Shown here: piece after piece, positions 1 through 23,378 of the stretch | How positions within the stretch are numbered: the stretch's first letter is position 1 | Layout: each line of letters starts with the position of its first letter | Assembly (NCBI GenBank): GCA_049512935.1 | Contig: JBEKWR010000011.1 | Span: 17,406-81,405, forward strand | DNA: 64,000 nt | Source of the DNA: Candidatus Bathyarchaeia archaeon | GTDB lineage: Archaea; Thermoproteota; Bathyarchaeia; Bathyarchaeales; Bathycorpusculaceae | Reading direction: 5' to 3' | Translations under genes and position numbers: made by a program | The notes under the pieces: generated by a model | Seen by the model: only the letters and a program-made list of their open reading frames with translations | Database searches by the model: none | Told to the model about the DNA's origin: nothing

Positions 1-284
1 TCGCCCGTGTGCATGCCGCAGTCTCCGTTGACGACGATTTCGCCGCTTGTCATGCATTGGCCGATGCGTTTGACTTTGCCGCAGTCGCCGTTGATGGTGA
101 TGTCTGGGGTTTCAGCGTTGTCCTTGGTTATTTCGAAGAGGTTGCATAGTTTCAGCTGCTGGTTTCCCTCGGTTGCGGGGAGATTTGCGATTTCAGCGAT
201 GGTTTTGCCTTTGAAGACGTCTGGGCTGATGCAAGCCGCTTGGACGGGCACCTCGAATTTTCGGAGGGGTCTTAGAGTTATCAT
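1..284 (-). CDS. fwdC: Formylmethanofuran dehydrogenase subunit C (partial, runs off window)
   Basis: Manual translation from ATG 284: MITLRPLRKFEVPVQAACISPDVF...ITINGDCGKVKRIGQCMTSGEIVVNGDCGMHTG (GXGXG beta-helix repeats); directly follows fwdA. Confidence 0.9.
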   Translation of the reverse strand, partial: MITLRPLRKFEVPVQAACISPDVFKGKTIAEIANLPATEGNQQLKLCNLFEITKDNAETPDITINGDCGKVKRIGQCMTSGEIVVNGDCGMHTG

Positions 285-288
285 TTTT

Positions 289-3464: not shown

Positions 3465-3469
3465 GACAA

Positions 3470-3871
3470 TTACCTTCCATACTCCAGTTTTAAAAGTTCA
3501 TCCAAGGTCAAGACAGGCTCGTCGGGGGCGGGTTCAACGTCAACCATGAAGCCTTTGTACAGGGGCATGCCCATGCCGAAGGTTTCATCTCCGCATACGG
3601 CGTTCGCCCACAAACCGCAAGGGATGAAGACCAAGCCAGGGTTGCAGCCGTAGGGGTTCTTAGCTGCTTTAACGATGACTGAACCGTACTTTGAAGTGAC
3701 TTTAACGTTTGTGTGGCTTTTTATGCCTAGTTTTTTCATGTCAGCTTCATCAATAATGCAGATTGAGGAGCTATCAGAGTATTCTTTGGAGCCTTTCCCC
3801 ATCTCTTTCCCCACGCCTTGATCGATCGTTCTACCTGTAATCAGAATAACGCGCAGTTTCTGCTCTACCAT
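3470..3871 (-). CDS. fwdD: Formylmethanofuran dehydrogenase subunit D
   Basis: LITGRTIDQG, VFIPCGLWAN, GMPLYKG; first gene of the operon. Confidence 0.93.
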   Translation of the reverse strand: MVEQKLRVILITGRTIDQGVGKEMGKGSKEYSDSSSICIIDEADMKKLGIKSHTNVKVTSKYGSVIVKAAKNPYGCNPGLVFIPCGLWANAVCGDETFGMGMPLYKGFMVDVEPAPDEPVLTLDELLKLEYGR

Positions 3872-4060
3872 GCCTAAGACCTACCCAATAGAAATTTATA
3901 GAGTTATATTTAAAATTAAGTTAAATAAAAGTGTAAAATCCACCTGTAACTCGGCAGATGACATCAATTTAATCAATCCCTGAGCCGCTTAGATTCTCCT
4001 GAAGGAAAGTTTTCCTCAAAATTTAGCAGAAATATGCCGTTTTGCGACGGGTTCTGGTTT

Positions 4061-4101
4061 GTCAAGGTTTCTGGACTAAACCCCAGTCAAGGTTTGTTGA
4101 C
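4061..4101. promoter_or_regulatory. Pair of imperfect palindromes GTCAA-N6-TTGAC (putative operator)
   Basis: gtcaaggtttctggac (4061) and gtcaaggtttgttgac (4086); a similar pair lies at 8890/8925. Confidence 0.45.
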
Positions 4102-4187
4102 AAAAACCTATTTATGAAAACCTAGCTGAGAGATAGGCTGACTGCGAGTCTGACATTGAAAGTTGGAAGCCTCTGAGAGCGATTAAA

Positions 4188-5468
4188 GTGTTCGGCATAA
4201 AGAAAGCCTTCGTTATCTTCATCGTGTGCCTGATGATCATAGGTATGTTTCTCGACCAACCCGTAAAGGCCCAAGCCCAAATCAACATAACAATCAGCCC
4301 AAACGGGAGCCTAAGTCCGTTGACAGCGCCGGTAAAGCAAACAGGTGACATTTACGAGCTGACAAGAAATTTGGAGGGAACCATAACAATAGAAAGAAAC
4401 AACACGGTCCTCAATGGAAACGGATATGACGTTTACGGGGAATGCGAGGTTAACGACTTTAACTACGTTTTCGTTACTCCCCCAGTGGGCTCCTCGATTA
4501 TTTCAAACGTAACCATTGAGAACTTGACGGTTTTCGGGAGCTACACGGGGTGCCTGATTGGCATTGAATTAAGCGATGCCGCGCATTCGAAAGTTATCAA
4601 CGACACTGTTGCTGGAGTTACGAGCCTGCTTGCAATGAACGGTGAGTTCTATTGTGGAGTCGACGTCGAGGGCGGAGGCTCAAACGTCATATCTGGGAAC
4701 ACCTTGCTGAATGATCTCACTGGCACCTCGTTCTCTGAAACTCAACACAACCTTGTTGTCGACAACATCATTCTGGATAACGCAAGCAGTGGGGGCCTTG
4801 GCAGTTGCTGTATTTCATTCTGGAATGCCTCTAACAACATGATATACCATAACGACTTTATCGACAACATCACATATGGCGTGCAGGCTTGCGACGGCGC
4901 TTGGCCTGGTCTTGGAAGCCCCGATTCAAACAACACATGGGATGACGGTTACCCTAACGGCGGGAACTATTGGGGCGACTACTGGAAGCAGAACCCCGAC
5001 GCTGGCGAAGTGTACAATTCGGGAATCCTCAACATGCCCTACGTCATCGACCCGAAGAACAAGGATTTGTACCCTCTCCAAAACCCGTTTAACGCGACCC
5101 TGTACGCGCTGGAGACGGTTCCGCCGAAAATATCCATCCTGTCACCGCTAAGCATGGCGTACAAGGAATCCACCGTGGCTTTGGTTTTCACCGTGGATAA
5201 AGCCGCCACGCGGATGGGTTACAGCTTGGATGGAAAGCAAACCGTACCCGTAACTGGCAACGTCACCGTAGCCAACATGACGAACGGGTTGCACAGCCTT
5301 ACGGTTTACGCTAACGACACGTTCGGCGACATCGGCTCCGCAACCGTCAACTTCACCATTGCGAAGCCAGTGTCCTTCCCGACCGTGCCCGTCGCCGCCG
5401 CTTCAGCCGCATCGGCAATCGCCATCATCGTAGGCTTAGCCTTTTACTTCAAAAAACGCCGTCGCTAA
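4188..5468 (+). CDS. NosD/parallel beta-helix surface protein with C-terminal membrane anchor
   Basis: Signal peptide, beta-helix repeats, IYHNDFIDN...WDDGYPNGGNYW, C-terminal TM followed by KKRRR. Confidence 0.8.
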   Translation: MFGIKKAFVIFIVCLMIIGMFLDQPVKAQAQINITISPNGSLSPLTAPVKQTGDIYELTRNLEGTITIERNNTVLNGNGYDVYGECEVNDFNYVFVTPPVGSSIISNVTIENLTVFGSYTGCLIGIELSDAAHSKVINDTVAGVTSLLAMNGEFYCGVDVEGGGSNVISGNTLLNDLTGTSFSETQHNLVVDNIILDNASSGGLGSCCISFWNASNNMIYHNDFIDNITYGVQACDGAWPGLGSPDSNNTWDDGYPNGGNYWGDYWKQNPDAGEVYNSGILNMPYVIDPKNKDLYPLQNPFNATLYALETVPPKISILSPLSMAYKESTVALVFTVDKAATRMGYSLDGKQTVPVTGNVTVANMTNGLHSLTVYANDTFGDIGSATVNFTIAKPVSFPTVPVAAASAASAIAIIVGLAFYFKKRRR

Positions 5469-5610
5469 GGCTTGCCTGTTTGGCATTTCGAGATGCGCCT
5501 ATCTGGATCATCTGGAAAACTGGTAGGGTAGAAGGGACGGAAATGTTTTTGTTGGGTTCGTCGGTACTTTACTAAGTAAAGTTATTAAGCTTAATGCAGC
5601 CATATGATTA

Positions 5611-6258
5611 ATGAAGCTGGTTTCAATGGATTTGGTTTCTCTAACGCCCCAGGGTCGAATCCTGCTGACTCTGGCTCATGGGCAGCACACGTATGCAGAG
5701 CTGAAGGCTGAGTCTGGGCTCAGCGACAGATGGCTAACCATAAAGCTTCAGGAACTTGTTGCTGACGGCTCCGTTGCGAAAGATGGAAGATGGTACAGGG
5801 TATGCGAAGGAGCGAAAGTTTCAGCTTACGAGTTAAGTCTTTTCATGCGGGGTCAGGCGCAGCGAGTTGCTGCTGAGCTTGGAAAGCTGCCGCTGGTGGA
5901 GCTCGTTGTGCTTTTCGGGAGTGTAGCTCAACGGAAGGCGGAGCAATACAGCGACATTGACCTTCTAATAGTCGCGGCTGACACTGGTGAAAAATCACGC
6001 GGGATGATTGTGAATGAATTAAGGCGGCTTGAATCAACCTTTCATTTTGCAATCGAATCCCTGATATTGTCAGAGCAAGATTTCGCCAAAAACTTACGGA
6101 CGGCAGAGGGAGGAATCATTTTTGGTTTAGCTGAGGGCTTCGAGGTTTTGCTGGATCGAAAAGCCAACTTAAGTGATATGCTGCAAAGTCGGGTGCAGGA
6201 GATATTGAGCAGTTTCACTCGCCTAGACGAGGAAGCAATATGGTTGAAAGCAAAGTAA
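5611..6258 (+). CDS. wHTH-fused minimal nucleotidyltransferase (MNT antitoxin)
   Basis: LFGSVA...YSDIDLLIV motif; N-terminal HTH; overlaps the HEPN gene. Confidence 0.85.
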   Translation: MKLVSMDLVSLTPQGRILLTLAHGQHTYAELKAESGLSDRWLTIKLQELVADGSVAKDGRWYRVCEGAKVSAYELSLFMRGQAQRVAAELGKLPLVELVVLFGSVAQRKAEQYSDIDLLIVAADTGEKSRGMIVNELRRLESTFHFAIESLILSEQDFAKNLRTAEGGIIFGLAEGFEVLLDRKANLSDMLQSRVQEILSSFTRLDEEAIWLKAK

Positions 6259-6671
6259 GCGTTCTGATGAGAATTTCGGAAGCTAACCTGGCAAAGGCTG
6301 AGAAGCGCTTCAAGGATTCAGAGTTTGACTCGGCCGTTTTTCATGCGTCGATGGCGGTTGAGACGGCGGCTAACGCGATGATTCTCCGCTTAGGCGGCAG
6401 TGAAGCAAGAGACCATCGGGCGATAAGTGGGTTGGCGGCGGTTTTGAGGCGGGTGAAACCTGAGTTGCTTCAAAAGTTTGAGTTCAGGCAGTTGATTGAG
6501 AAAGGGTCAGACATTCAACGGGAAGTCGTCTACACTCGTTACCCGATAAGTACGGGCGGCAAATGGGTTACCCCCATGGAGTACTACAGCCGTGAGAAGG
6601 CTAAGGCGGTGCTCGAGAACGCTAAACTTGTTTGCGGCATCATCGAGAAGTACCTTGAAGAAAACAATTAA
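6240..6671 (+). CDS. HEPN domain protein (toxin partner of MNT)
   Basis: AVFHASMAVE, RDH, YTRYP motifs. Confidence 0.85.
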   Translation: MVESKVSVLMRISEANLAKAEKRFKDSEFDSAVFHASMAVETAANAMILRLGGSEARDHRAISGLAAVLRRVKPELLQKFEFRQLIEKGSDIQREVVYTRYPISTGGKWVTPMEYYSREKAKAVLENAKLVCGIIEKYLEENN

Positions 6672-6834
6672 TCAATTTGTCTCGGGGTATTCCTTCGAAA
6701 ATGCGAGGAGAAAAATGGGAAAAGAAACCAAAAGCTTAACCTACAGGACAAAACAGCACAATCAATTAATGGTTAGCTTAGTTTTTCATCGCACATGGGA
6801 CAGTGAATAGGAAGCTTCTTTTGCAGATGCAGCA

Positions 6835-7143
6835 CTAAATCCAAAGTGACGGCTTTTGACGGGCATCTGTTACATCGGGTTCCATTATGTCGGCAGCTCG
6901 CTGTAAGACCTGCTTGGTTAGATCCATGCAAATAGTCGGCGCTTTCAGGTGAACCGCTGCCACGTCGCCCTTTGGCTGCGTTCTGTGCGTGCTTACGTGA
7001 TGGTTGATTTCTTCGATCATTTCTCCCAAAGTTGGAACCATAGGGATTTTTTCGCCGCACTCCGGGCACCTTATGTATTTGATTTGGGTTTGTTCGTTCC
7101 CGTTTTCTTTGGTTGCTGGGTTATTTTCTGAGTTAGTTATCAT
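6835..7143 (-). CDS. Small zinc-finger protein
   Basis: IRCPECGEKI...NHHVSTH; ATG at 7143. Confidence 0.6.
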   Translation of the reverse strand: MITNSENNPATKENGNEQTQIKYIRCPECGEKIPMVPTLGEMIEEINHHVSTHRTQPKGDVAAVHLKAPTICMDLTKQVLQRAADIMEPDVTDARQKPSLWI

Positions 7144-7397
7144 GGGCAGACGCCTTGCACGTAAAGGGGCTGAATCGGGGTTTAAGCGCTTATAATATGC
7201 GGGTATAGTTGCGAAGACTATCTTGGCTGCTTTTTCCAAATTTGAGTTCCTTGCGCTCGCACTTATTTGTGCATCTTGCGGCTGGGATTACCCGGATTTG
7301 CATGTTTCATGCCTAAAAAATTAACGGCTAATCTGGATGCAGATAGCTGAATTGGAGGCAGAACAGAGAAATGGACTCGAATGAAGGCCTAACGAGC

Positions 7398-7685
7398 CTA
7401 AGTAGTCCCGAATTGCTCCAGTACTTGCCGTCCAAAATCCGTGATTTCCACTGCGTAAAACTTGTAAGGCGCCAAATTCTTCAAGGCGTCAGGTATATTC
7501 ACCAGCAAAGACTTTGCCAGACTCCTAACGGCTTCATTTATCTCATCTGGAAGTAACCCTGTTTTTTTGTGAATTAATTCGCCTTTCACCAGTTCACCCT
7601 TATCAAATTCCGCCAAGGCTTCCAGAACTTTTTTGGCTTCCATATCAATCATGTTGAAATCTTCAAGGTCAAAATTTTCAGACAT
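7398..7685 (-). CDS. Small winged-helix-like hypothetical protein
   Basis: IHKKTGLLPDEINEAVRSL...VEITDFGRQVL resembles a wHTH. Confidence 0.55.
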   Translation of the reverse strand: MSENFDLEDFNMIDMEAKKVLEALAEFDKGELVKGELIHKKTGLLPDEINEAVRSLAKSLLVNIPDALKNLAPYKFYAVEITDFGRQVLEQFGTT

Positions 7686-7859
7686 TTGAAAAACCCTGTT
7701 TAAACTTATGCATTATCCCTTAAAAACTCTTTGAAAAGCTCTGGGTAGCCAGATTAGGTCTACATTAATTTTTCACGGCACATCGGGCATTTAAGCGGGA
7801 GGCTCTTTTGCAGGTGGTTTTGTTCAACCATGCATGCGAAGCAAACTAGCAGGTAAGCG

Positions 7860-8147
7860 CTAAGAAGGGTTCTGTTTCGTTTCTTTGCTTGTTAGCAGTT
7901 TTATTATGAAGCAAGCATTTACTATCAAAAAGAAGACAAAGACGTAGAATGGGAAGTTAGCAATTGACATTGCAATTGGTACAATAACTTGACCTGTCGG
8001 TGCTGGTGCAATGGCAATGTTGGTAAGACTGTAGCTGTTTACTACTGAGCCGTTGATTTCTGAGAGCATCAATTGGCTGGAAAGATAAAGAAGCAAACCC
8101 ATAATGACATTGACACCGACAATGATAGCCGTAAATCTTTTTGTCAT
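7860..8147 (-). CDS. Array gene: small 2-TM membrane protein
   Basis: Two hydrophobic segments; ATG 6 nt from repeat R1. Confidence 0.7.
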   Translation of the reverse strand: MTKRFTAIIVGVNVIMGLLLYLSSQLMLSEINGSVVNSYSLTNIAIAPAPTGQVIVPIAMSIANFPFYVFVFFLIVNACFIIKLLTSKETKQNPS

Positions 8148-8153
8148 GTTAGT

Positions 8154-8256
8154 CTATCTCTAACGCTTTTCAGATTTAAGACTTATCTACCCTCTAATAG
8201 CGAAATTCCTAACCCTCGAATGTATTCGGTCATAGCCCTAACCGTTTAATGTACTT
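8154..8256 (-). repeat. Array repeat R1 (core 8154-8184 plus long extension)
   Basis: + strand ctatctctaacgcttttcagatttaagactt followed by atctaccctctaatagcgaaattcctaaccctcgaatgtattcgg... Confidence 0.9.
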
Positions 8257-8278
8257 TGCAGAATAGAAAGAACAGTGA

Positions 8279-8851
8279 TTATGGGGAATTTGTCCATACT
8301 GGCGTTACAGTCCAGTTGGCGAGGACGCCTTCATGGTAGATATCTAGGTTAACAGTTGCGCATTGTCCAGCTGTTAAATTTCCAAGTTGTGTTGGACCAA
8401 TGTCATATCCTATGTCTGAAACAATCGCAGCGTCAGTTCCATAATTGTAACCGTTAACTAAAGGAACAGTCATGTTTATTGCTATGTGTCCCGAGGTGGC
8501 GTAGGCGATGACTTTTAATCCTGCGTTGTACGCTGTCATGTTTCCCACGTTAACTGCTGAACCTTGAATGAAAAGTCTCCAATAATCAGCACCGTATGCA
8601 TCAATCGAGTTCCCAACACCTATTTGAGCCACACCTAATTGAGCCGTGATTTTTGGGTTGGTTAATAGTGAGATTTGATTGTTCAAATTAGCTATCTCTG
8701 TATTTTGATTTGCTATTTGATTGTTCAGAGAAGCTATCTTAGAATTTTCTTGTTTGACTACACCGTTATAATAAACTATTGTTCCAGCAAGTGCACTTGC
8801 AAAGAGTATAGCAATAACTGTGGCGGACACCACTTTAATTTTGCTAACCAT
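8279..8851 (-). CDS. Array gene: membrane-anchored protein with coiled coil and Ig-like domain
   Basis: N-terminal TM, IASLNNQI heptad repeats, beta-rich C-terminus. Confidence 0.75.
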   Translation of the reverse strand: MVSKIKVVSATVIAILFASALAGTIVYYNGVVKQENSKIASLNNQIANQNTEIANLNNQISLLTNPKITAQLGVAQIGVGNSIDAYGADYWRLFIQGSAVNVGNMTAYNAGLKVIAYATSGHIAINMTVPLVNGYNYGTDAAIVSDIGYDIGPTQLGNLTAGQCATVNLDIYHEGVLANWTVTPVWTNSP

Positions 8852-8889
8852 ACTTGCCAATAAAATGTTTTTTCAATAAAAGCGTATTC

Positions 8890-8940
8890 GTCAAGATTCC
8901 TTGACTAAAAGCGTAACCCATCAAGTCAAAGTTTCTTGAC
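8890..8940. promoter_or_regulatory. Pair of GTCAA-N6-TTGAC palindromes
   Basis: gtcaagattccttgac (8890) and gtcaaagtttcttgac (8925). Confidence 0.5.
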
Positions 8941-8951
8941 TAAGAATTAGT

Positions 8952-8973
8952 CTATTTCTGCGCTTTCAGATTT
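8952..8973 (-). repeat. Array repeat R2 (truncated or degenerate)
   Basis: ctatttctgcgctttcagattt; lacks the aagactt end; encodes the last codons of ORF 8952-9188. Confidence 0.65.
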
Positions 8974-9188
8974 GCGATGTTTGCATCATGCCTTTTGATT
9001 TCTTGGTGCTCATGGTATCCTGCTATGGATGCTATAATCATTCCTGCAAACCAAATAATTATAATAAAGGGGCTGATGACGCCCGGTGGGTTAATATAAA
9101 AAATATAGTACAAAGAAGAAAAAAACAAAATTAGCCATACTACACCACAGATTATTAGAATTTTATTCCATTTTGTTATCTTTAACAC
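8952..9188 (-). CDS. Array gene: small 2-TM membrane protein
   Basis: Two TM segments; GTG start 11 nt from R3. Confidence 0.65.
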   Translation of the reverse strand: MLKITKWNKILIICGVVWLILFFSSLYYIFYINPPGVISPFIIIIWFAGMIIASIAGYHEHQEIKRHDANIANLKAQK

Positions 9189-9199
9189 CTTACCAGTTT

Positions 9200-9230
9200 C
9201 TTTATTCTACGCCATGCAGATTTAAGACTT
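9200..9230 (-). repeat. Array repeat R3
   Basis: ctttattctacgccatgcagatttaagactt. Confidence 0.9.
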
Positions 9231-9261
9231 GCTTTCTTGAATAGTGCAAAAAAACAAATCA

Positions 9262-9663
9262 TTAGGGGCTTGAGATTGGACCACCGTCAAATACTACATA
9301 TATTGCTTGGCGTGCTACATCGTACGAAACTATTGTAACGTATTCAGAAGTAATGAATTCATAATCTAAGTAATTAGTTGTATTACCATTAGGATTTAAT
9401 TGCCAATCGTCCTCTGCAGGTTCAGAAGTCCAGCCAACATATTGAGATTTTGGCTTAAAAACAGCTGTTAACACAAGGTGAGTAGTGCGAGGCGCTTCTG
9501 TGTATGTGAATCCAGCAAAGTAAAACCCAGTGTTACCCACTTTTTCGCCCTTATAAATAAGAGTTAATGATTTTGTTTGGTCAAAGCCCCAAACAATAAG
9601 TGCCGTTACAGTGACCAATACAACAACAATTTCCGCTATTTCATAATACTTGGATTTTTTCAT
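9262..9663 (-). CDS. Array gene: membrane-anchored hypothetical protein
   Basis: N-terminal TM; ATG 16 nt from R4. Confidence 0.7.
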   Translation of the reverse strand: MKKSKYYEIAEIVVVLVTVTALIVWGFDQTKSLTLIYKGEKVGNTGFYFAGFTYTEAPRTTHLVLTAVFKPKSQYVGWTSEPAEDDWQLNPNGNTTNYLDYEFITSEYVTIVSYDVARQAIYVVFDGGPISSP

Positions 9664-9679
9664 TCTATCTCTGATATTT

Positions 9680-9709
9680 CTATTTCTACGCTATGCAGAT
9701 TTAAGATTT
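9680..9709 (-). repeat. Array repeat R4
   Basis: ctatttctacgctatgcagatttaagattt. Confidence 0.92.
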
Positions 9710-9904
9710 TTTTGAGCCAAAAAATACCGTGAGACCGCCAGCAACCAGAAAAGCAATCGCGAGGGTAGCCACTATTAAAGAACCATAAAAGTTAGAAGAC
9801 ATGTTTCCAGTAGTCTTATACATCAATTCCCTTCCAGCAAAGTATGCAATAATGAGACCGTCAATTAACAACAATATTCCGAGACCGATAAGTGTTGATT
9901 TCAT
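9701..9904 (-). CDS. Array gene: 2-TM protein (paralog of 10416-10628)
   Basis: Ends GGLTVFFGSKKS*; stop codon lies inside R4. Confidence 0.7.
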   Translation of the reverse strand: MKSTLIGLGILLLIDGLIIAYFAGRELMYKTTGNMSSNFYGSLIVATLAIAFLVAGGLTVFFGSKKS

Positions 9905-9917
9905 TTCGGCTCAATTT

Positions 9918-10034
9918 CCATTTATACGCCATGCAGATTTAAGACTTGTCATCAATGAAGACTTGCTAAAAACTAATGAGCATATCCTTAACCCTTGAAT
10001 GCACTCGGTAATAGTACTGATCGTTTGATCTACT
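9918..10034 (-). repeat. Array repeat R5 (core 9918-9947, extension ~9985-10034)
   Basis: ccatttatacgccatgcagatttaagactt; tccttaacccttgaatgcactcggtaatagtactgatcgtttgatctact. Confidence 0.88.
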
Positions 10035-10046
10035 ACGGAGACATGG

Positions 10047-10379
10047 TTATTCTAATTTGTGTAACTTAGCCCTTGCTCTTAACAACATTACTGTACATAA
10101 CAACAAAGAAATTATTGCAAATACACCAATAAGAGTCGTTGCGTACAAAAAGATTGCTTTGAGTGCGAGGTTATCTGTAGAAAAGTATTCTTCATAATTT
10201 ACAGTGAATAAAGCTGCAAAAAAAGCAAGACTGCCAAAGAGAAATGTTCCCCATAACTGAATATCAGCTTGAAGTTTAGCAAGGTCAATTTGTAATTTTC
10301 TCTCGATATCTATTTCATCATCTTTTTCTTCATGCTCTATAGAAAACAACCCAAGAATACTGATTTTTATCTTGGACAC
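10047..10379 (-). CDS. Array gene: 2-TM membrane protein
   Basis: Charged N-terminus plus two TMs; GTG start 15 nt from R6. Confidence 0.7.
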   Translation of the reverse strand: MSKIKISILGLFSIEHEEKDDEIDIERKLQIDLAKLQADIQLWGTFLFGSLAFFAALFTVNYEEYFSTDNLALKAIFLYATTLIGVFAIISLLLCTVMLLRARAKLHKLE

Positions 10380-10394
10380 TTGAATCCCTAAGTT

Positions 10395-10424
10395 CTATTT
10401 CTACGCTTCACTGATTTAAGACTT
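10395..10424 (-). repeat. Array repeat R6
   Basis: ctatttctacgcttcactgatttaagactt. Confidence 0.92.
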
Positions 10425-10628
10425 TTTAACTCCAAAAATAACCATGAGACCGCCGATTGCGACTATGACAGCGGCTATGATAATATCCCAAAGATACGAG
10501 CCTATCGCTGAAAGAATGTTAACTGTGGTCACGGTGTGTTCCATGTGCACACCTGAGAAATAGCCAAAAACTAACCCTATCGCAATCAGCACTATTCCAA
10601 TGCCAGCAACTATTGAACCGTGCCCCAT
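10416..10628 (-). CDS. Array gene: 2-TM protein (paralog of 9701-9904)
   Basis: Ends GGLMVIFGVKKS*; stop codon lies inside R6. Confidence 0.7.
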   Translation of the reverse strand: MGHGSIVAGIGIVLIAIGLVFGYFSGVHMEHTVTTVNILSAIGSYLWDIIIAAVIVAIGGLMVIFGVKKS

Positions 10629-10633
10629 GACTG

Positions 10634-10704
10634 CTATTTCTACGCTATTCAGATTTAAAACTTATCTACTCTATAATTGTGAAATCCCTAACCCTTGAAT
10701 GTAC
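10634..10704 (-). repeat. Array repeat R7 (core 10634-10663 plus partial extension)
   Basis: ctatttctacgctattcagatttaaaactt atctactctataattgtgaaatccctaacccttgaatgtac. Confidence 0.92.
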
Positions 10705-10721
10705 CCTTAAAATCTATACTA

Positions 10722-10931
10722 TCAGAGATACAATATAACCCAAAGCACAAATCCAATAACGGCGAAAACTAACATACCACCAAAAAACTTTGGAAGAAAA
10801 CTGTATCTTGAAATGTCTTTGTTCTTATCGAGTAAAATCTTGAATACTTCTCCAAATAAATCATAAAGTACTTGTGCAAACACAGCAAGCAAAACACCAA
10901 ATAGTAGCCAGAAGAACTCCGAATTTATCAT
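10722..10931 (-). CDS. Array gene: small 2-TM membrane protein
   Basis: Two TMs; ATG 6 nt from R8. Confidence 0.7.
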   Translation of the reverse strand: MINSEFFWLLFGVLLAVFAQVLYDLFGEVFKILLDKNKDISRYSFLPKFFGGMLVFAVIGFVLWVILYL

Positions 10932-10937
10932 AATAAT

Positions 10938-10966
10938 CTATCTTTGAGCATGCAGATTTAAGACTT
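10938..10966 (-). repeat. Array repeat R8
   Basis: ctatctttgagcatgcagatttaagactt. Confidence 0.85.
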
Positions 10967-11022
10967 ATCGTGCTTTCAAAACGTCAAAAAATCTTGGGTA
11001 TACGGTTAACTTTAATCTGGGT

Positions 11023-11238
11023 TTACCTACGCAAAATGCGAAGAATAATTAAGCCTGCAACGAAAAGCACGATGCCACCGAACATTATGAATACCATCAT
11101 TAAGTATATTGCTCCTCCAGCCCACTGATGAAAACGTAATGGTATATGCAACAATGGAATAGCCCACGTGAATAGTGTGTAGAACCACCAAACGATGTAT
11201 GCCAATGGCAATAAAACCCACACGTGTTTCTTGTTCAT
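11023..11238 (-). CDS. Array gene: small 2-TM membrane protein (start moved to ATG 11238)
   Basis: MNKKHVWVLL...; the upstream ATG in the ORF track would read through repeat R9. Confidence 0.65.
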   Translation of the reverse strand: MNKKHVWVLLPLAYIVWWFYTLFTWAIPLLHIPLRFHQWAGGAIYLMMVFIMFGGIVLFVAGLIILRILRR

Positions 11239-11255
11239 TTCTATCTCTGATACTT

Positions 11256-11284
11256 CTATTCCACGCTGTGCAGATTTAAGATTT
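11256..11284 (-). repeat. Array repeat R9
   Basis: ctattccacgctgtgcagatttaagattt; shares the leader ctatctctgata with R4. Confidence 0.88.
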
Positions 11285-11363
11285 TTGACCATTATGGCAG
11301 TTGCTTAAAAACAATTGCAAAAAATCAATTTATAGCTGCCGAAATAAAAAACGGGACTATATT

Positions 11364-11957
11364 CTATTCACTCTTTAAGAAAATTAGAAGTTCTTTCAAG
11401 CCTTTTTCTTCAGGTTTTCGTAATTCACCATCTTTCTTAAGCTGTTCGATAGTTTTTTTGAGATAAAGTTCTTTGGCTCTCTTTTTGCGAAAAACTAATG
11501 CGTATACTTCTGCCTCTGGGTAAATTATTTTGTCAGGATATGATAACCTCTCAGAAAGAATAATTGTAGCGAAACGCAAGTTTTTATTTTTTTGTTTGAA
11601 TTTGTCAAATGTGGTTTTTATATCCTCTGATTTCTTCTTACCAACAACGGCACTGTTACTGATTTTCAGAACAGCATCCAATTCTTTAACTGAATACTCT
11701 TTTCTGTTTTGGTCAACATCAGTCTTAATTAGATACAAAAGGTTCATTCCCGTTTTTACATCTTTTATTTTTACTCTAACATTCTGAGGCAATCTAATAT
11801 CTTTAGGAAGACAGTTATGAATGGCAATTTGGGTTGCTTTCCCAGATTTTAGCATTGGAGAACCAGTTTGATTAGGATATTCCTTTGTGACTTCGATAAG
11901 CATCTTATATTCTGTATCTTCATCAGATAATGATTTCAATTCTTCAAATTTAGTCAT
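11364..11957 (-). CDS. Array gene: Lys-rich soluble hypothetical protein (possibly nuclease-like)
   Basis: AT-rich 197-aa ORF, ATG 16 nt from R10; no firm motif. Confidence 0.6.
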   Translation of the reverse strand: MTKFEELKSLSDEDTEYKMLIEVTKEYPNQTGSPMLKSGKATQIAIHNCLPKDIRLPQNVRVKIKDVKTGMNLLYLIKTDVDQNRKEYSVKELDAVLKISNSAVVGKKKSEDIKTTFDKFKQKNKNLRFATIILSERLSYPDKIIYPEAEVYALVFRKKRAKELYLKKTIEQLKKDGELRKPEEKGLKELLIFLKSE

Positions 11958-11973
11958 TTTTTATCCTATAGCC

Positions 11974-12076
11974 CTATTTCTACACTAACCAGATTTAAAA
12001 CTTCTCTACTCTGTAATAGCGAAGTCCCTGACCCTTGAATGTACTCGATAATAGCGTAATCGTTTAATGTAAACTT
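11974..12076 (-). repeat. Array repeat R10 (core 11974-12003 plus long extension)
   Basis: ctatttctacactaaccagatttaaaactt ctctactctgtaatagcgaagtccctgacccttgaatgtactcgataatagcgtaatcgtttaatgt. Confidence 0.92.
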
Positions 12077-12096
12077 CACGTATGCGTAGGAAAAGG

Positions 12097-12738
12097 TCAC
12101 TGATTTAAGTTAGCGGTTTTTCGAAGCTTAACTATCACAGCAGCGGAGAACACGGAAAGAAGCAAGGGCACAATCACCGACCAAGACAGTTCTGAAACTG
12201 CTTGGGTTGAGGCTGGTGTTGATGTAGGTGTTGCAGTAGTAGGTGTTGGCGTTGCGGTTGGAGAATTACTAGTCGTTGTCGAAGCTTGACCGTTCCAGAT
12301 TATATTGTAGGTCTGCAACGTTGCGCTGTCAAGCATGGCGTAATCCATACTGCTTATTGAACTGCCAGAGGGAATTTGAAAGACTAATGCACCACTGAAT
12401 GAACCGCCATTAAGTACATTCACTGTACTCCAATTATTGAGGGCAAAAGTTTCAATGTCATAATAGTAAGCAACATTATTAGCTGTAGCTGAAAAATATA
12501 CTGGGTTAGTATCGAAACTGTCATAGCCATTGTTAGTAATAGTTATGTTAACAATCGCAAAAACGTAGCCTGATTGCGGACTGACATAAGCCAAGCCATT
12601 CCAAATTTGGTTCACCGTGAATGAACTGAAATTAATCGCTATGTTATCATCAGCTTTAACGGATTTTATGTTTGTCATCCAAACGACTGAAGCGAGAAAT
12701 AACATTAAAAGAATGGAGATTAGGATTTTTTTGTTCAT
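12097..12738 (-). CDS. DUF4352-like surface protein with Thr/Pro linker and PEF-CTERM-like anchor
   Basis: Signal peptide, FAIVNITITNNG...F..., TPT-rich linker, VSELS-TM-KLRK. Confidence 0.7.
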   Translation of the reverse strand: MNKKILISILLMLFLASVVWMTNIKSVKADDNIAINFSSFTVNQIWNGLAYVSPQSGYVFAIVNITITNNGYDSFDTNPVYFSATANNVAYYYDIETFALNNWSTVNVLNGGSFSGALVFQIPSGSSISSMDYAMLDSATLQTYNIIWNGQASTTTSNSPTATPTPTTATPTSTPASTQAVSELSWSVIVPLLLSVFSAAVIVKLRKTANLNQ

Positions 12739-12865
12739 TTTCTGCCCCTTGCTGGCTCTATCTGCTGCTTTAGCATATAAGCTTTAACAGGCTTGCCTTT
12801 TTGCCGTCGCTAGGTTGCCAACACAAAAAGCGAAAATAAAAAAGAAAAGAAAAGGGTTTGTTGGT

Positions 12866-13150
12866 TTAGAGGCGTTTGATGTAGCGGTTGACTTCCCAGT
12901 CGGTTACTTGCGTGCGGTACAGGTTCCATTCGCGGCGTTTTTCCCGCAAAAAGTTGTCAAACGCGGTTTCGCCCAAGGTCTCGCGCATCAGGTCGCTGGT
13001 TTCCAACTCGTCTAAGGCTTCCTCAAGCGAGTCTGGCAGGGAAACGATGTTTCGTTCTTTGCGTTCTTCGTAGGTCATCTGGTAAATGTTCAGCTCCACC
13101 GGGTCGCCTGGGTCAATGCGGTTCCTGATGCCGTCCAAACCCGCCGCCAA
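12866..13150 (-). pseudogene. Displaced duplicate of the glnA 3' end (last 94 codons)
   Basis: About 24 mismatches in 285 nt versus 16495-16779 (manual count); no 5' part of the gene. Confidence 0.9.
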
Positions 13151-13833
13151 AGCCTGCTTGCTTACCCATAGATAGCAATGGACCAGAAACCAAAACTAAC
13201 CCGCATAGATTATGTAAAAACCAAAAAGTTAACCCGTACACATAAGGGCAAAAAAGCAGGTTACGGTTAATAGATGGTACACGTGCCTCTTTCATTATCC
13301 TTAGAGAACATTAATTCTTTGTCTGCTAAAAACGCTCTTAACTCTGTAATGTTGCCGTTTGTCCTTATTGTAAGAATAAAAGCGCCACGTTCGTTTTTTC
13401 AATTACATTGACAAACTCTTTTTGTGAATATGATGACTGATTGTGCAAGCGTTAAAAAATAGCATCAAAAACTTCTCTTCCAATGAGGCGCACTCTTTTG
13501 TCAAAATTGCAGGGTTTGCATTTTCCACAATGGAGCATTTAGCAGAATATGATCTCCCTAACAATCGCAATTCAATGTCTTTGTAATCTTCGAAGTGCAT
13601 TGGCTCCATGCAAATCGCGTTCATGGTAATTCGTTCTCTCACACTGCATCGTAGGCTACTTCTTGCGGGTGGTTTCGATTGACAAAAGAATTATTTGCAG
13701 AAGATGTTTAAAAAATAGGTATAAAAGTGCAGACTTTCTATTGTGAGTCTGATTCCAGAAAATACATAAGCTTTTTTACTAATTTAACGTAATAGTCGAA
13801 CAATCTAGATACTATCACAATAGCGATGATAAA

Positions 13834-14679
13834 ATGGAAAAACCCGCTGTCGATACGATTATTTGCGGAGATTGTGAGCAAGTTCTCAGAGAAAACTATC
13901 CCAAAAACTTCTTCAACTTGATTGTCACATCGCCACCATATGCAGACAGAAGAAAGAAAATATATGGTGGCATCCATCCTGACAAATATGTAGATTGGTT
14001 CTTGCCAAAAAGCAAGGAATTTCTGAGAGTCTTAAAAGATGATGGAACATTCATTCTTAATCTTAAAGAGAGAGTTGCAGATGGAGAAAGACACACTTTC
14101 AGATTAGAGCTAATTTTAGAGATGCGAAAGCAAGGTTGGCTGTGGACTGAAGAGTTCATATGGCATAAGAAAAACTGCTACCCTGGTAAATGGCCCAATC
14201 GTTTCAGAGATGCATGGGAACCAATATTGCAGTTCAACAAGAAGAAAAAGTTCAAAATGTTCCAAGAAGAAGTTATGATTCCAGTAGGCGACTGGTCTAA
14301 AAGAAGGCTGAGCAAACTAAGCGAGACTGACTACGTTAGAGACGAATCTAAAACTAGCAGCGGTTTTGGAAAGAAAATTGTCAATTGGGTTGGAAGAGAC
14401 AAAGTTTATCCCACTAATGTTCTGCACATGGCAACTGAATGTGCATATAGAGGACACAGCGCTACATTTCCAATTGAGTTGCCTTCATGGTTCATTAAGT
14501 TGTTCACTGAGAAGCATGATGTTGTGTTAGACCCTTTCATGGGTTCTGGAACAACAGCTCTAGCGTCAAAACAATTGAGCAGACACTATGTTGGAATAGA
14601 CACCTCGGAAGAATATTGTGAGGTTGCTAAAGAGAGAGCTACAGTTGTGAGTCAATCATCATTGGATGTCTTACTATGA
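13834..14679 (+). CDS. Site-specific DNA methyltransferase (N4C/N6A, beta class)
   Basis: Catalytic TSPPY near the N-terminus; SAM-binding DPFMGSGTT near the C-terminus. Confidence 0.92.
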   Translation: MEKPAVDTIICGDCEQVLRENYPKNFFNLIVTSPPYADRRKKIYGGIHPDKYVDWFLPKSKEFLRVLKDDGTFILNLKERVADGERHTFRLELILEMRKQGWLWTEEFIWHKKNCYPGKWPNRFRDAWEPILQFNKKKKFKMFQEEVMIPVGDWSKRRLSKLSETDYVRDESKTSSGFGKKIVNWVGRDKVYPTNVLHMATECAYRGHSATFPIELPSWFIKLFTEKHDVVLDPFMGSGTTALASKQLSRHYVGIDTSEEYCEVAKERATVVSQSSLDVLL

Positions 14680-15437
14680 ACCAAATAGACATGAAGAAGG
14701 TTGTAGAGTTTGTTGATAGCAATATCGTTAACTTTCACAATGCAAAACTAGAATCTATTAAAGTGCTTCAACTTGATGAATTGTTAAAAAGAAAAAATCC
14801 GTACATGTTCAAAGCAAAAAACATTGCCACTGTTGAAGATTACGTGAGAAATCTTCTTGACGCACATCTGTATTCGCAAGAAGAAACAATGTTTGGCACT
14901 TTCTTAGAGAAACTTGCTATCTTCGTATGCAGCGAAGCCTTTGGCGGTCAGAAAACTCCTGCTGAAGGAATAGACTTAGATTTTTGTCGAGATGACAAAC
15001 GATACTTAGTGGCAATTAAGTCTGGCCCTCATTGGGGCAACAGTACACAAATAAAGAAGATGCTAGACTACTTCGCTCAAGCTAAAAGAATACTGAATTT
15101 AGATAACGTCTGTTGCCTCAATGGATGTTGCTATGGAAGATGCAACAAAGAGAACAAGGGCAAGTACATTAAGAAATGCGGGCAGTCTTTTTGGGAATTC
15201 ATCTCTGGAAGTAGCGAATTCTACAAAGAAATAATTGAACCACTTGGACATAAAGCAAAAGAGAGAAACGAAGAATTCAACCAAGAATACGCAAAAGTCA
15301 TAAATAAATTTGGGTTAGAATTTAGCGCTCTCTACTTGAAGGCAGACCACAGCATTGATTGGGAAAAAATTGTAGAATTCAACAGTGCAAGAAAAAAGCA
15401 GAAGAAATTTATTGCTGCAACACAAATAACTCTTTAA
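14676..15437 (+). CDS. Type II restriction endonuclease (PmeII-like)
   Basis: LLKRKNPYMF, GTFLEKLA, GIDL...AIKSGPHWGN; overlaps the MTase stop codon. Confidence 0.8.
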   Translation: MNQIDMKKVVEFVDSNIVNFHNAKLESIKVLQLDELLKRKNPYMFKAKNIATVEDYVRNLLDAHLYSQEETMFGTFLEKLAIFVCSEAFGGQKTPAEGIDLDFCRDDKRYLVAIKSGPHWGNSTQIKKMLDYFAQAKRILNLDNVCCLNGCCYGRCNKENKGKYIKKCGQSFWEFISGSSEFYKEIIEPLGHKAKERNEEFNQEYAKVINKFGLEFSALYLKADHSIDWEKIVEFNSARKKQKKFIAATQITL

Positions 15438-15513
15438 AATAACTTCTACTGATGCATTCTATTTCAATTGCAATTGATGAACTTTTTGCACTCATATCTA
15501 ACATTGGCTTAAG

Positions 15514-16284
15514 CTATGCATTTACTGTGAGAGTAACTTCATGAGTTGTTACTTCGTTGCCGTCTGCTAAAACAGTGATAGTGATAACGTACTTTCCTGG
15601 CAGCACATTGTGCGACGCTAGATTGAAGCTGTAGTCTGTACTTTGCCCTAATGGTCCTAAACCAGTGATTGAACTAAAATTAGGTGTTATAGTCAGTCCT
15701 GAAGTACCTGATGGCGCTGTTGCTGTTGCAGAGAAATCCGAATAAGCGCCATGACCGTTGCTCTTAATTTCAAAGTGCAGAGCTGTATTGTCATTTTGTC
15801 CAATTTGACTTTTTTCTGGAACAACTGGATACCCAAAGGGTTCAGTCCAATGAACATTTGTAATTTCTATTGATGGAAGCACATAGCACGTAGGACTTAT
15901 ATTAGCTGGGGTTGTGGTTCCATTGTAGGTATAGCTAATTGATATTGGGTAATAGCCATTAGCAATATCTGCCACTTGAATAAGGCAGGAAACTTGTTCC
16001 GTGGCGTTAGCTGCGACGTTAATTGAGTTTGAAGTAACTGTGCCAAATGCGTTTGACTCCAGAGTCACAAAAACTCCTTTTGCCTCTCCACCAGTATTCT
16101 GAACACTAACAGCAACTGAATAGTTCAACGTGGCTTCTGCCAAAAATGAGTCTAAACTGACAGATAGTACTGGGGGTTGTGATGGCTCTTTTGGTGGCAA
16201 ACTTAAGTAATACAAAGTACCAGCCAAACCAGCCGCTAAGATTAAACATACAATAGCAATTGCTGCAATGTACTTCGGTTTCAT
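15514..16284 (-). CDS. Membrane-anchored protein with Ig-like (CARDB-like) domains
   Basis: N-terminal TM, VSVQNTGG, beta-rich. Confidence 0.7.
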   Translation of the reverse strand: MKPKYIAAIAIVCLILAAGLAGTLYYLSLPPKEPSQPPVLSVSLDSFLAEATLNYSVAVSVQNTGGEAKGVFVTLESNAFGTVTSNSINVAANATEQVSCLIQVADIANGYYPISISYTYNGTTTPANISPTCYVLPSIEITNVHWTEPFGYPVVPEKSQIGQNDNTALHFEIKSNGHGAYSDFSATATAPSGTSGLTITPNFSSITGLGPLGQSTDYSFNLASHNVLPGKYVITITVLADGNEVTTHEVTLTVNA

Positions 16285-16494
16285 TATCAGTGCCTCAAAT
16301 TACGCACTCTATCGTTTTCAGTATTTAGTTATTGTTAACTTATATGTGTCAAAATCAAACAGTTAATTGAAATTGATCCCATACAGACTTAATGAGTACG
16401 CAAATGTATCAAACTGAACAGAGTTGTAGTATGCAAAAAAGTGAATTGAGACCCTGATTAAGCAAAAGAAAGGGGAAGGGAGGCTTTTCTTGTT

Positions 16495-22978: not shown

Positions 22979-23009
22979 CTCACCTCTATGTTATGCAGAT
23001 TTAAGACTT
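22979..23009 (-). repeat. Solo copy of the array repeat (R11)
   Basis: ctcacctctatgttatgcagatttaagactt. Confidence 0.75.
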
Positions 23010-23378
23010 TCATTAGGAGGCTGGCGCTTTACTCGCCCATTTTTTGGTGTAGAGCATCGATAAGGGTGTGGAGTATTGTAGCGGGTTATCTTGGGCGGTT
23101 TTCGATGTGGGGTTCTGCTGCGGCCGCTGTTTCCATGTTTAGCCTGTGATGCATCTTGGTTTTTCCACTTGGTTCGCCTGCTTTCGAGCGCTCAGCTTTC
23201 CGTTTAATGCTCGAACCCTCGGGTGGTTAATGGCAGGAGCATCGAAGAAAAGCAGAACACCTGTACTATCCCAAATAATGGAGGGTCATAGTTTAGGTAT
23301 CACTCGTGAACACTTTGCACGTGCACTGCGCTGATTCAATTTTTATATTTGAAAACTAACTTGTAACAGGGGAAGCAG

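Follow-up and report, generated by a model that had tools for sequence, protein, structure and literature searches.

The window, a 64-kb stretch of the genome of Candidatus Bathyarchaeia archaeon, contains an array of ten small co-oriented genes, most of which are headed by a copy of one short repeated element. We consider it probable that this element is a portable archaeal core promoter with a probable operator attached, that it heads autonomous cassettes carrying orphan genes, and that general recombination shuffles these cassettes while viruses spread them. Read on the coding strand the element is A-AAGTCTTAAATCTG-nAnA-GCGTAGAAATAG, which can equally be written A-AAGTC-TTAAAT-CTGnAnAGCGTAGAAATAG: a putative transcription factor B recognition element (BRE; A-AAGTC), a putative TATA box (TTAAAT), and a 17-nt right half, CTGnAnAGCGTAGAAATAG, predicted to end about 6 nt before the transcription start. 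All coordinates are positions in the window, and the array genes lie on its minus strand, which is the coding strand. G000 denotes the genome from which the window comes (2.30 Mb in 49 contigs, named C1, C2 and so on; G+C content (GC) 47.7%; 93% complete), G followed by another number denotes other genomes, L followed by a number denotes fetched loci or IMG/VR contigs, and X3–X6 are metagenomes.

When up to two mismatches were allowed, CAGATTTAAGACTT matched the window ten times against 0.70 matches expected, and none of 100 shuffles reached ten. Nine of these matches lie at 8171–12003, on one strand only, and the tenth lies at 22996; a repeat search of the window likewise recovered a 34-nt family (D1) and its relatives. 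The array region, 8154–12114, holds nine full copies, one relic and one degenerate copy, the last two read from the sequence. These copies, together with the solitary one outside the array, are given below with their position weight matrix (PWM) scores and their distances to the start codon.

11973–12005, minus strand: element heading ORF10 (AAGTTTTAAATCTGGTTAGTGTAGAAATAG); PWM 45.1, start codon 46 nt after AAGTT.
11254–11286, minus strand: element heading ORF9; PWM 39.6, start codon 46 nt after the first base, leader in common with the ORF4 copy.
10936–10968, minus strand: element heading ORF8, right arm divergent; PWM 35.3, start codon at 35 nt (leaderless class).
10633–10665, minus strand: element heading ORF7; PWM 50.0, start codon at 35 nt.
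10394–10426, minus strand: element heading ORF6, with its BRE/TATA overlapping the stop and final codons of ORF7 (gap −9).
9917–9949, minus strand: element heading ORF5; PWM 50.7, start codon at 43 nt.
9679–9711, minus strand: element heading ORF4, overlapping the ORF5 stop codon; PWM 53.9.
9200–9232, minus strand: element heading ORF3; PWM 48.0, GTG start at 42 nt.
8154–8186, minus strand: element heading ORF1, with a 1-nt insertion in the right arm; PWM 43.1, start codon at 37 nt.
8950–8979, minus strand: relic inside the 3' end of ORF3, right arm retained, TATA half gone.
12085–12114, minus strand: degenerate copy (TAACTTAAATCAGTG...), overlapping the stop codon of a DUF4352 gene.
22979–23011, minus strand: solitary copy outside the array; PWM 25.1.

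The open reading frames (ORFs) of the array are as follows.

7860–8147, minus strand: ORF1, 95 aa.
8279–8851 (alternative end 8860), minus strand: ORF2, 190 aa (193 aa).
8952–9188, minus strand: ORF3, 78 aa.
9262–9663, minus strand: ORF4, 133 aa.
9701–9904, minus strand: ORF5, 67 aa.
10047–10379, minus strand: ORF6, 110 aa.
10416–10628, minus strand: ORF7, 70 aa.
10722–10931, minus strand: ORF8, 69 aa.
11023–11238, minus strand: ORF9, 71 aa.
11364–11957, minus strand: ORF10, 197 aa.

An earlier model-made reading of the DNA letters (the sequence-only reading) had described ten copies of the element, each followed by exactly one ORF. Nine copies stand at the positions it listed, but the one at 8952 is a relic and the right arm of the one at 10938 diverges. 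The pairing of copy and gene likewise holds for nine of the ten co-oriented ORFs, since an intact element precedes ORF1 and ORF3–ORF10; ORF2 is without one because the copy at 8950–8979, located in the end of ORF3, is a relic that no longer has its TATA half.

The geometry of the element is that of a core promoter. In all nine full copies of the window the distance from AAGTC to the start codon is 35–46 nt, which places the start codons 5–16 nt after the 30-nt unit and agrees with the close spacing described from the sequence. For a wider comparison we used a set of 216 copies from G000 and from 121 loci of its relatives, each with at most four substitutions in 22 fixed positions (positions 0–13 and 18–25 of the unit; positions −2, 15, 17 and 26–29 were left unselected). 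An ORF of at least 30 aa starting 24–89 nt after AAGTC follows 159 of the 216 copies, with peaks at 35–37 nt (51 copies) and 43–46 nt (45 copies). Archaeal core promoters have an A/T-rich TATA box about 26–27 nt upstream of the transcription start and a purine-rich BRE directly upstream of it. TTAAAT occupies unit positions 5–10, so that a start at 35–37 puts the centre of the TATA box at about −27/−28, which is the spacing of an archaeal core promoter. The predicted transcription start is about 35 nt after AAGTC, which would make roughly one third of the genes leaderless and give a further third a leader of 8–11 nt. Conservation is high from −2 to +29 only and falls to background in both flanks, and the unselected positions −2, 15, 17 and 26–29 are nevertheless conserved across 199 distinct copies. 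The supposedly variable centre of about 4 nt thus varies at two positions only, position 15 being A in 189/199 and position 17 in 183/199. As expected by geometry, both in its distances and in its conserved span, the element would act as a BRE/TATA core promoter of leaderless or short-leader mRNAs, in line with the likeness to a BRE/TATA that had been remarked on from the letters.

The two halves of the element appear to differ in how widely they are used. Upstream regions of 37 tRNA genes of G000 carry a similar BRE/TATA (for example AAGCTTAAAAT and AAGTCTAAATC), and the right half is absent from all 37. Because the tRNA promoters have the left half only, we take the left half to be the ordinary BRE/TATA of this genome and the right half to be specific to the family. 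Upstream of 1628 crudely called long ORFs of G000, TATA-like hexamers are only mildly enriched, with a diffuse consensus, and the element was not found. Where the exact left arm does occur in G000, a recognisable right arm follows in 10/10 cases. The most likely role of the right half is to bind a single common regulator or to set the strength of the promoter. A paralogue of transcription factor B (TFB) was considered as the discriminating factor; proteins of this type at about 80% identity occur in all 81 genomes searched, motif-positive or not, and so offer no discrimination. G000 has three TFB genes (C12:32709, C1:35720 and C6:11466), two of them about 82% identical to each other, and genomes of the genus have 1–6 strong TFB matches each.

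Four of the window copies carry additional conserved sequence on their upstream side.

12006–12076, minus strand: module of the long form (ACATTAAACG...ACATTCAAGGGTYAGG...CGCTATTACAGAGTAGAG), adjoining the ORF10 promoter on its upstream side.
8187–8274, 9950–10042 and 10666–10720, minus strand: further long-form modules upstream of window copies.

This long form comprises about 46–90 nt and is found at 18/199 copies in total; with it, the unit measures about 120 nt. It consists of two similar half-units (ACATTAAACGGTTAGG... and ACATTCAAGGGTTAGG...) and has a sharp distal edge near 8272 that recurs in several genomes. Its four upstream parts in the window fold no better than shuffles (z 0.76, −0.48, 1.16 and 0.68), and it may be an upstream activator site.

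The element is not a general promoter. The sequence-only reading had allowed that the motif might turn out to be a common promoter ahead of ordinary core genes; the tRNA promoters and the 1628 long ORFs of G000 are without it. G000 has about 18 copies spread over at least seven loci: nine are in the array and the others are on C1 (2), C6 (3–4), C15, C24 and C28 and at window position 22996. The 3-kb surroundings have a GC of 0.35–0.44 for 14/19 PWM hits in G000, against 0.477 for the genome. In a collection of 185,579 species the exact pattern AAGTCTTAAATCTG-N4-GCGTAGAA matched 103 stretches, and all 100 matches listed of the 103 belong to metagenome-assembled genomes (MAGs) of Bathyarchaeia/Bathyarchaeota from peat, bog and soil projects. 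Within the genus the element was found in 42 of 80 genomes drawn, at 1–32 copies each and 253 in all; 16 genomes from other genera of the order had none, and a reversed-pattern control gave zero everywhere. With DNA identity of the glutamine synthetase gene glnA to G000 as a proxy for relatedness (11 genomes without a listed glnA match being left out), the presence of the motif fell off as follows.

glnA identity at least 79%: motif in 18/19 genomes, median 8 copies.
glnA identity 77–78%: motif in 11/18 genomes.
glnA identity 75–76%: motif in 7/18 genomes.
glnA identity at most 74%: motif in 0/14 genomes.

The Spearman correlation between motif and glnA identity is 0.75 across these 69 genomes, which as kin are not independent. 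A relaxed search (three mismatches, shorter pattern) of five near-complete negative genomes gave counts like those of the reversed control. The gradient with relatedness and the negative relaxed search together indicate that the element is characteristic of a subclade within the genus, and not a universal motif that has diverged.

The genes behind the element have little in common with one another. Clustering of the 159 downstream proteins gave 112 clusters, of which 84 are singletons; the median length of the proteins is 95 aa, and 62/159 have at least one predicted membrane segment. An element ahead of 112 unrelated protein clusters bears out the proposal that the leader is a module independent of its cargo, and within the array the copies heading ORF4 and ORF9 (R4 and R9 of that proposal) indeed have about 50 nt in common that run to the ATG, apart from two 1-nt indels. 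Since the promoter stands near-unchanged ahead of unrelated genes, promoter and gene together behave as movable cassettes. Nine of the ten array ORFs have at least one transmembrane segment by a crude hydropathy count, which confirms that they are mostly membrane proteins; none of the ten matched a Pfam family above the cut-off. For a wider view of function we scanned 78 cargo proteins with Pfam and PADLOC: 72 clusters were each represented by one protein of 60 aa or more, and six proteins came from G000. Pfam returned 21 families with one protein each (at most 21/78 matched), among them NYN, GNAT, NosD/beta-helix, EVE, LAGLIDADG and zinc ribbon. PADLOC matched 5/78 and most of the proteins matched nothing, so the suggestion that the array diversifies envelope or defence proteins was not upheld. 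ORF5 and ORF7 are paralogues. ORF10 has only six relatives among 5.8 billion proteins, and its AlphaFold model has a mean pLDDT of 51. We regard the cassette genes as real because the ratio of nonsynonymous to synonymous divergence (dN/dS) lies between 0.10 and 0.53 in the two families concerned (0.26–0.41 in the ORF1 family and 0.10–0.53 in the ORF7 family).

Several lines of evidence indicate that promoter and ORF travel as a unit. Six species have members of the ORF1 family behind the same promoter and leader, with different neighbours in each, as had been proposed for a portable promoter-ORF unit. Gene order, whose conservation among relatives would have spoken against exchange, is not conserved. 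Between the window and other genomes, matches of 45–125 nt at 80–92% occur where the leader or the long form is shared, and the long form itself is a separable part, being present upstream of ORF1 and ORF7 in the window and missing from homologues elsewhere. ORF5 and ORF7 both end in K-K-S-stop (AAA AAG TCT TAA; AAAAAGTCTTAA), and the same letters form the BRE/TATA of the next promoter (9701–9711 and 10416–10426). This overlap of gene and promoter in the ORF7 family recurs in L024 and L057, thus in at least three species, and the overlapping promoter heads four different genes.

On C1 of G000 an islet of two cassettes (2.3 kb) lies between the genes for phosphoglycerate kinase and a HAD-like protein. 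The same site measures only 46–154 nt in G092, G064, G019 and G016. G063 has one of these two cassettes at 88–91% identity, on a different contig and thus at another chromosomal place than in G000; the homology spans the first motif base to the stop codon. The exact boundaries of the insertion cannot be placed, as the spacers of the relatives' empty sites are unalignable. The edges of the islet (L131, ~2975–2990 and ~5255–5270) carry a perfect 12-nt inverted repeat (AAATCTAAATCC / GGATTTAGATTT); its left copy coincides with the end of the gene for phosphoglycerate kinase, both copies resemble the TATA half, and the repeat may be due to chance. Elsewhere, a two-cassette block is 92% identical between L034 (~2326–4020) and L089 (~5244–6967). 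In L034 a direct repeat of the GGCTCAC...AAAAGCCTTGAAGA type, about 55 nt long, stands on either side of the block; this repeat occurs in only five places, four of them distinct and none in G000, and may be an att-like site.

Synonymous divergence (dS) points in the same direction. Cassette dS is 0.35 between G000 and G064, 0.36 between G000 and G047, and 0.47–0.60 for ORF7 against L024 and L057; for the core genes glnA1 and glnA2 it is 1.1–1.7 between G000 and its closest relatives, and 1.3–1.4 for the pair G000–G064. A cassette dS below the core dS suggests that cassettes moved between species after these had diverged.

These comparisons bear on a more conventional explanation, namely that the element marks an ordinary, vertically inherited regulon whose promoters look alike through selection for the site of one factor. 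Such a regulon would account for a motif distribution that follows phylogeny, for conservation of the primary sequence as in a protein-binding site, and for an arrangement that is stable in four metagenomes. It would not account for cargo that is unconserved between species (84/112 clusters being singletons), for cassette sites that are empty in close relatives, or for a cassette dS three to four times below that of core genes, and no orthologous cargo at syntenic positions across the subclade was seen in the loci examined. The 32 near-invariant positions, BRE/TATA included, would also exceed what a factor site needs, and a convergent origin ahead of more than 100 unrelated orphan genes seems implausible. 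We hold this explanation to be quite unlikely.

If cassettes are exchanged, the arrangement of the copies suggests how arrays may be built. A neighbouring copy lies within 2 kb of 141/216 copies, and the nearest copy is co-oriented in 141/141. Grouped into chains, the copies were distributed as follows.

Chains of 1 copy: 75.
Chains of 2 copies: 31.
Chains of 3 copies: 15.
Chains of 4 copies: 4.
Chains of 5 copies: 2.
Chains of 8 copies: 1, which is this window at that stringency and the largest found.

Packing in the window is tight: the stop codon abuts or overlaps the next module, in short or long form, at 5/9 junctions. Runs of at least five T are present in 4/8 intergenic spacers that precede element copies and in 5/10 spacers in all. 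In the explanation that we favour, the element and the ORF behind it would form an autonomous expression cassette, mostly of an orphan gene, in AT-rich variable islets, exchanged among species of one subclade of Bathyarchaeia and also riding on a tailed provirus. Cassettes would pile up head to tail by general recombination, with the repeated promoter as portable homology and no dedicated integrase. A single crossover between the promoter on incoming or excised DNA and a resident copy would insert a cassette in the same orientation, and crossovers of this kind between parallel copies necessarily yield co-oriented tandem cassettes. We infer on this basis that arrays grow and are shuffled by homologous recombination at the element.

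The sequence-only reading had proposed instead an integron-like system, in which a hypothetical recombinase would recognise the element and move single promoter-ORF units. The array does have the corresponding layout of site, ORF and site with minimal spacers and a stop codon abutting or overlapping the next module in 5/9 cases; co-orientation is complete (141/141), cassettes occur in different arrays, and both the element and its long form are sharp-edged in many contexts. The element itself, however, lacks the features of a recombination site. Its arms, TTAAATCTG and GCGTAGAAA, are not inverted repeats as read from the sequence, and two of the four centre positions vary. A possible 5-bp stem in the core unit (TCTGC/GTAGA) folds weakly (z −2.1 and −2.3) and is without covariation across the 199 copies, the pair 11–23 showing 17 single-sided against 2 double changes and thus no compensation. 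As for attC core sites, 7860–12076 contains two GTTRRRY (4.3 expected) and no RYYYAAC (5.5 expected); the absence of attC hairpins had itself been noted from the letters, and it stands.

Nor did we find a recombinase that goes with the element. G000 has one PF00589 (tyrosine recombinase) hit, at C2:123574, on a contig that differs from that of every motif locus, and no PF00239 (serine recombinase) hit in a genome that is 93% complete. In five relatives (G019, G085, G047, G013 and G003), PF00589 lies above the cut-off within 5 kb of 3/93 copies listed, all three in G085, and within 10 kb of nine of the 93. BLAST clustering of the 845 ORFs that measure 90 aa or more and lie up to about 4 kb from a copy gave no cluster that occurred in more than six sources, and the recurrent neighbours resemble secreted or housekeeping proteins by this clustering only. 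This recombinase search comprised two families by name and the recurrence screen of neighbouring ORFs. Co-occurrence with a tyrosine recombinase, proposed as a check from the letters, was therefore not seen, and an integron-like site does not fit an element that has no dyad, no covariation and no nearby or recurrent recombinase, and whose copies are scattered over many loci and not gathered on one platform. We rate such a system as very improbable indeed. A related possibility, that the element, besides being a promoter, is acted on by a dedicated recombination activity of neither the tyrosine nor the serine type, encoded by host or virus and capturing single orphan genes, would fit because of the 141/141 co-orientation, the end-to-end packing, the sharp edges and the exchange of cassettes; we judge it very unlikely.

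Short, many-copy, sharp-edged units, here of about 120 nt in the long form, might also suggest a MITE-like element (miniature inverted-repeat transposable element) with an outward promoter that inserts upstream of genes, and the 12-nt inverted repeat at the edges of the C1 islet could be read that way. There are, however, no terminal inverted repeats within the unit and no target duplications; distance and orientation to the start codon are always fixed; the homology of shared cassettes takes in the ORF and not the element alone; and no pair of empty and filled sites differing by the element alone was found. We regard this as extremely unlikely.

Contigs from the metagenomes were compared with window positions 3500–17500. 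Those of X3 and X4 tile the reference order (for example one piece spanning 9681–12964), and X5 and X6 gave low-depth fragments only. Depth is raised over the repeats, and loose contig ends delimit the repeat unit (9679/9680 to 9709–9713 and 10633/10634 to 10666/10667). Most joints have sides of 20–33 nt at repeats and derive from other loci or organisms. A joint 8941->12120, present in three runs, was considered as a deletion variant and is explained by a paralogous locus of G000 (C5:15195–15310); backward joints at 9706->7861 and 10991->9679 were considered as circle junctions and rejected, as they do not fall within two repeat copies.

Viruses offer an evident route for the spread of cassettes. 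IMG/VR contains no exact match to the element; a degenerate pattern found three contigs with the same genes, representing one virus, each with one element copy. Among their genes are those for the large terminase subunit, the portal protein and the tape measure protein; inside the tail module, on the opposite strand, the element copy heads a membrane ORFan of 245 aa. This virus (L141, 1–12593) is present in G020, a genome of the genus, at C30:40353–52945 with 97% identity over 12.6 kb, and related proviruses at 85–92% occur in G064, G092 and G053. The part that bears the cassette is unmatched in the G092 provirus (85%); the match in G064 (92%) begins at contig base 1 and is uninformative on the presence of the cassette. 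Morons are extra genes with their own promoter inserted between phage genes, and by comparison of these sequences the cassette behaves as a moron and the provirus as its evident vehicle. The viral contig also carries a ParB-like/methylase gene. The provirus in G020 links the virus to a host among peat Bathyarchaeia.

The array itself lies in inserted DNA, which is arranged as follows.

3985–16485: inserted DNA of about 12.5 kb, strain- or species-specific; GC 0.34–0.42 over 7–16 kb.
12840–13150, minus strand: duplicate of the glnA 3' end (original 16464–16779), 316 nt, 89% identical, an internal junction of the island.

The borders are a gene for a molybdopterin-binding-domain protein (3470–3871) and glnA (16495–17862), and we treat the interval as an insertion because its flanks are collinear in G092, where window 1–3984 and the 3' end of glnA are 364 nt apart. 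The two copies of the glnA end bracket an EcoO109I-type restriction-modification pair (13834–15437) and a 256-aa secreted protein (15514–16284), and the duplication resembles the scar left where an element has entered a protein gene at its 3' end, with no integrase recognisable. The island also encodes a NosD-like beta-helix protein, a zinc-ribbon protein and a DUF4352 secreted protein.

The array could accordingly be a piece of an integrated virus or plasmid with the repeat as its own promoter, the dispersed copies being remnants. Nearly all G000 copies lie in AT-rich patches, the cargo consists of small orphan genes, zinc ribbons and membrane proteins, the duplicated glnA 3' end in a 12.5-kb insertion is a typical integration scar, and a tailed provirus of the genus does bear one copy. 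Yet no gene for an integrase, for replication or for a capsid could be recognised in the island; the tailed virus has a single copy in 12.6–13.5 kb, on an inserted gene, while its own genes are without the motif; IMG/VR gave 0 exact and 3 degenerate matches, all from one virus; and the smallest islets are two cassettes between housekeeping genes. We think this origin unlikely.

Other features of the window lie within or next to the array.

8890–8943, minus strand: pair of GTCAAG-N4-CTTGAC palindromes ahead of ORF2, another type of promoter or operator.

Paralogues of this palindrome region in G000 lie at C5:13.6–18 kb, C24:5.2 kb, C25:11.9–12.7 kb, C6:91.8 kb and C1:127.3 kb, located after the ends of DUF4352-like genes; the region is probably the operator of another regulon, for secreted proteins. 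Directly downstream of the array is a 95-aa gene with a winged-helix-turn-helix-like product (7398–7685), whose DNA matches many genomes of the genus at 66–82% in varying places, motif-negative genomes included, and which is thus not array-specific. The island further contains a nucleotidyltransferase (Polbeta/NTP_transf_2) and HEPN pair at 5611–6671, likely a toxin-antitoxin-type module. The two glutamine synthetase paralogues (16495–17862 and 19451–20923) lie 1.6 kb apart and are both conserved in the closest relatives. A search of the window with Rfam returned one tRNA only.

Several points weigh against portable promoters that are shuffled by general recombination. Promoter function is predicted from geometry, and an invariant stretch of 17 nt between TATA box and start exceeds known core-promoter elements; the factor that would bind it is hypothetical. 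No ORF of at least 30 aa lies in range of 57/216 copies; some of these are at locus ends, some have longer leaders (C6), and others may be decayed. Where the 3' end of a shared cassette is visible, it lies at the stop codon and not in the next motif, and since neutral flanks are unalignable at a core dS above 1, breakpoints cannot be placed. The dS values come from 64–95 codons of AT-rich genes by the NG86 method, with estimates near saturation. Contigs of the four peat and wetland metagenomes, in which rare forms are invisible, contain no variant order and no circle junction. Finally, every genome is a MAG, and the loci in the copy set partly overlap, 213 copies with full flanks reducing to the 199 distinct sequences.

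On the best reading, by analogy, the closest counterparts of portable promoters of this kind are the promoter-early stem-loop (PeSL) cassettes of T4-type phages and the putative mobile promoters. Recombination between PeSL repeats shuffles, deletes and inserts single genes without a dedicated integrase and can yield one-gene circles, according to Arbiol et al. (2010, PMC2839356). In both cases a short motif, which for PeSL contains a strong promoter, is repeated between small, mostly orphan, co-oriented genes in variable regions, genes that in the phages are non-essential. The setting differs: PeSL cassettes have sigma-70 promoters and lie in a phage hyperplastic region, whereas the present element is of the BRE/TATA type and lies on archaeal chromosomes and one provirus. 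The stem-loop terminator described for PeSL is not part of the archaeal unit, whose long-form upstream parts fold no better than shuffles. Beside the recombination between copies and the mini-circles reported for PeSL, the archaeal data offer cassettes with different neighbours in different species, and no circle junction in the contigs. PeSL cassettes of T4-type phages are also the subject of Comeau et al. (2014, PMC4122927).

Putative mobile promoters (PMPs; Matus-Garcia, Nijveen and van Passel) are similar upstream sequences ahead of non-homologous genes and shared between taxa, defined by at least 80% identity over at least 50 nt between −150 and −50; most families are pairs, and the mechanism of movement is unknown (PMC3575422). 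The present core unit, 32 nt at −46 to −5 from the start codon, would be missed by such a screen, and only the 18/199 long-form copies would qualify. Its numbers also differ: single genomes have as many as 32 copies, and 42 genomes other than G000 have 253 between them.

Integrons share with the array the co-oriented single-ORF units with a short element, the diverse cargo of unknown function and the occurrence of the same cassette in different arrays. Most integron cassettes lack a promoter of their own and depend on the common promoter of the integron for transcription. The archaeal element differs in standing at the 5' end and resembling a promoter, and it has no attC palindrome, no integrase next to the array and no single platform, copies being found at seven or more loci in G000 and 75/216 being solitary. 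The likeness to morons lies in the 245-aa viral ORFan with its own element on the opposite strand in the tail module; the difference is that hundreds of cassettes on chromosomes, away from any recognisable prophage, have this promoter too. In the literature on archaeal and Bathyarchaeia promoter motifs and genomic islands we did not find the element described, which is no proof of absence.

The element represents promoter reuse on an unusual scale, with one 32-nt unit ahead of more than 100 orphan-gene families in more than 40 species of uncultured archaea. It is a candidate native promoter for Bathyarchaeia, a lineage without genetic tools, a pointer to a factor that would bind the 17-nt right half, and a marker for the accessory, virus-exchanged gene pool of peat archaea. 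If cassettes do recombine from copy to copy, the PeSL principle would extend from T4-type phages to archaeal chromosomes; should a dedicated activity be responsible, the system would be an archaeal counterpart of integrons in which each cassette brings its own promoter. More broadly, the arrangement offers a testable model for how newly acquired or newly born archaeal genes may come to be expressed, namely as ready-made units of promoter and gene, carried in part on viruses.

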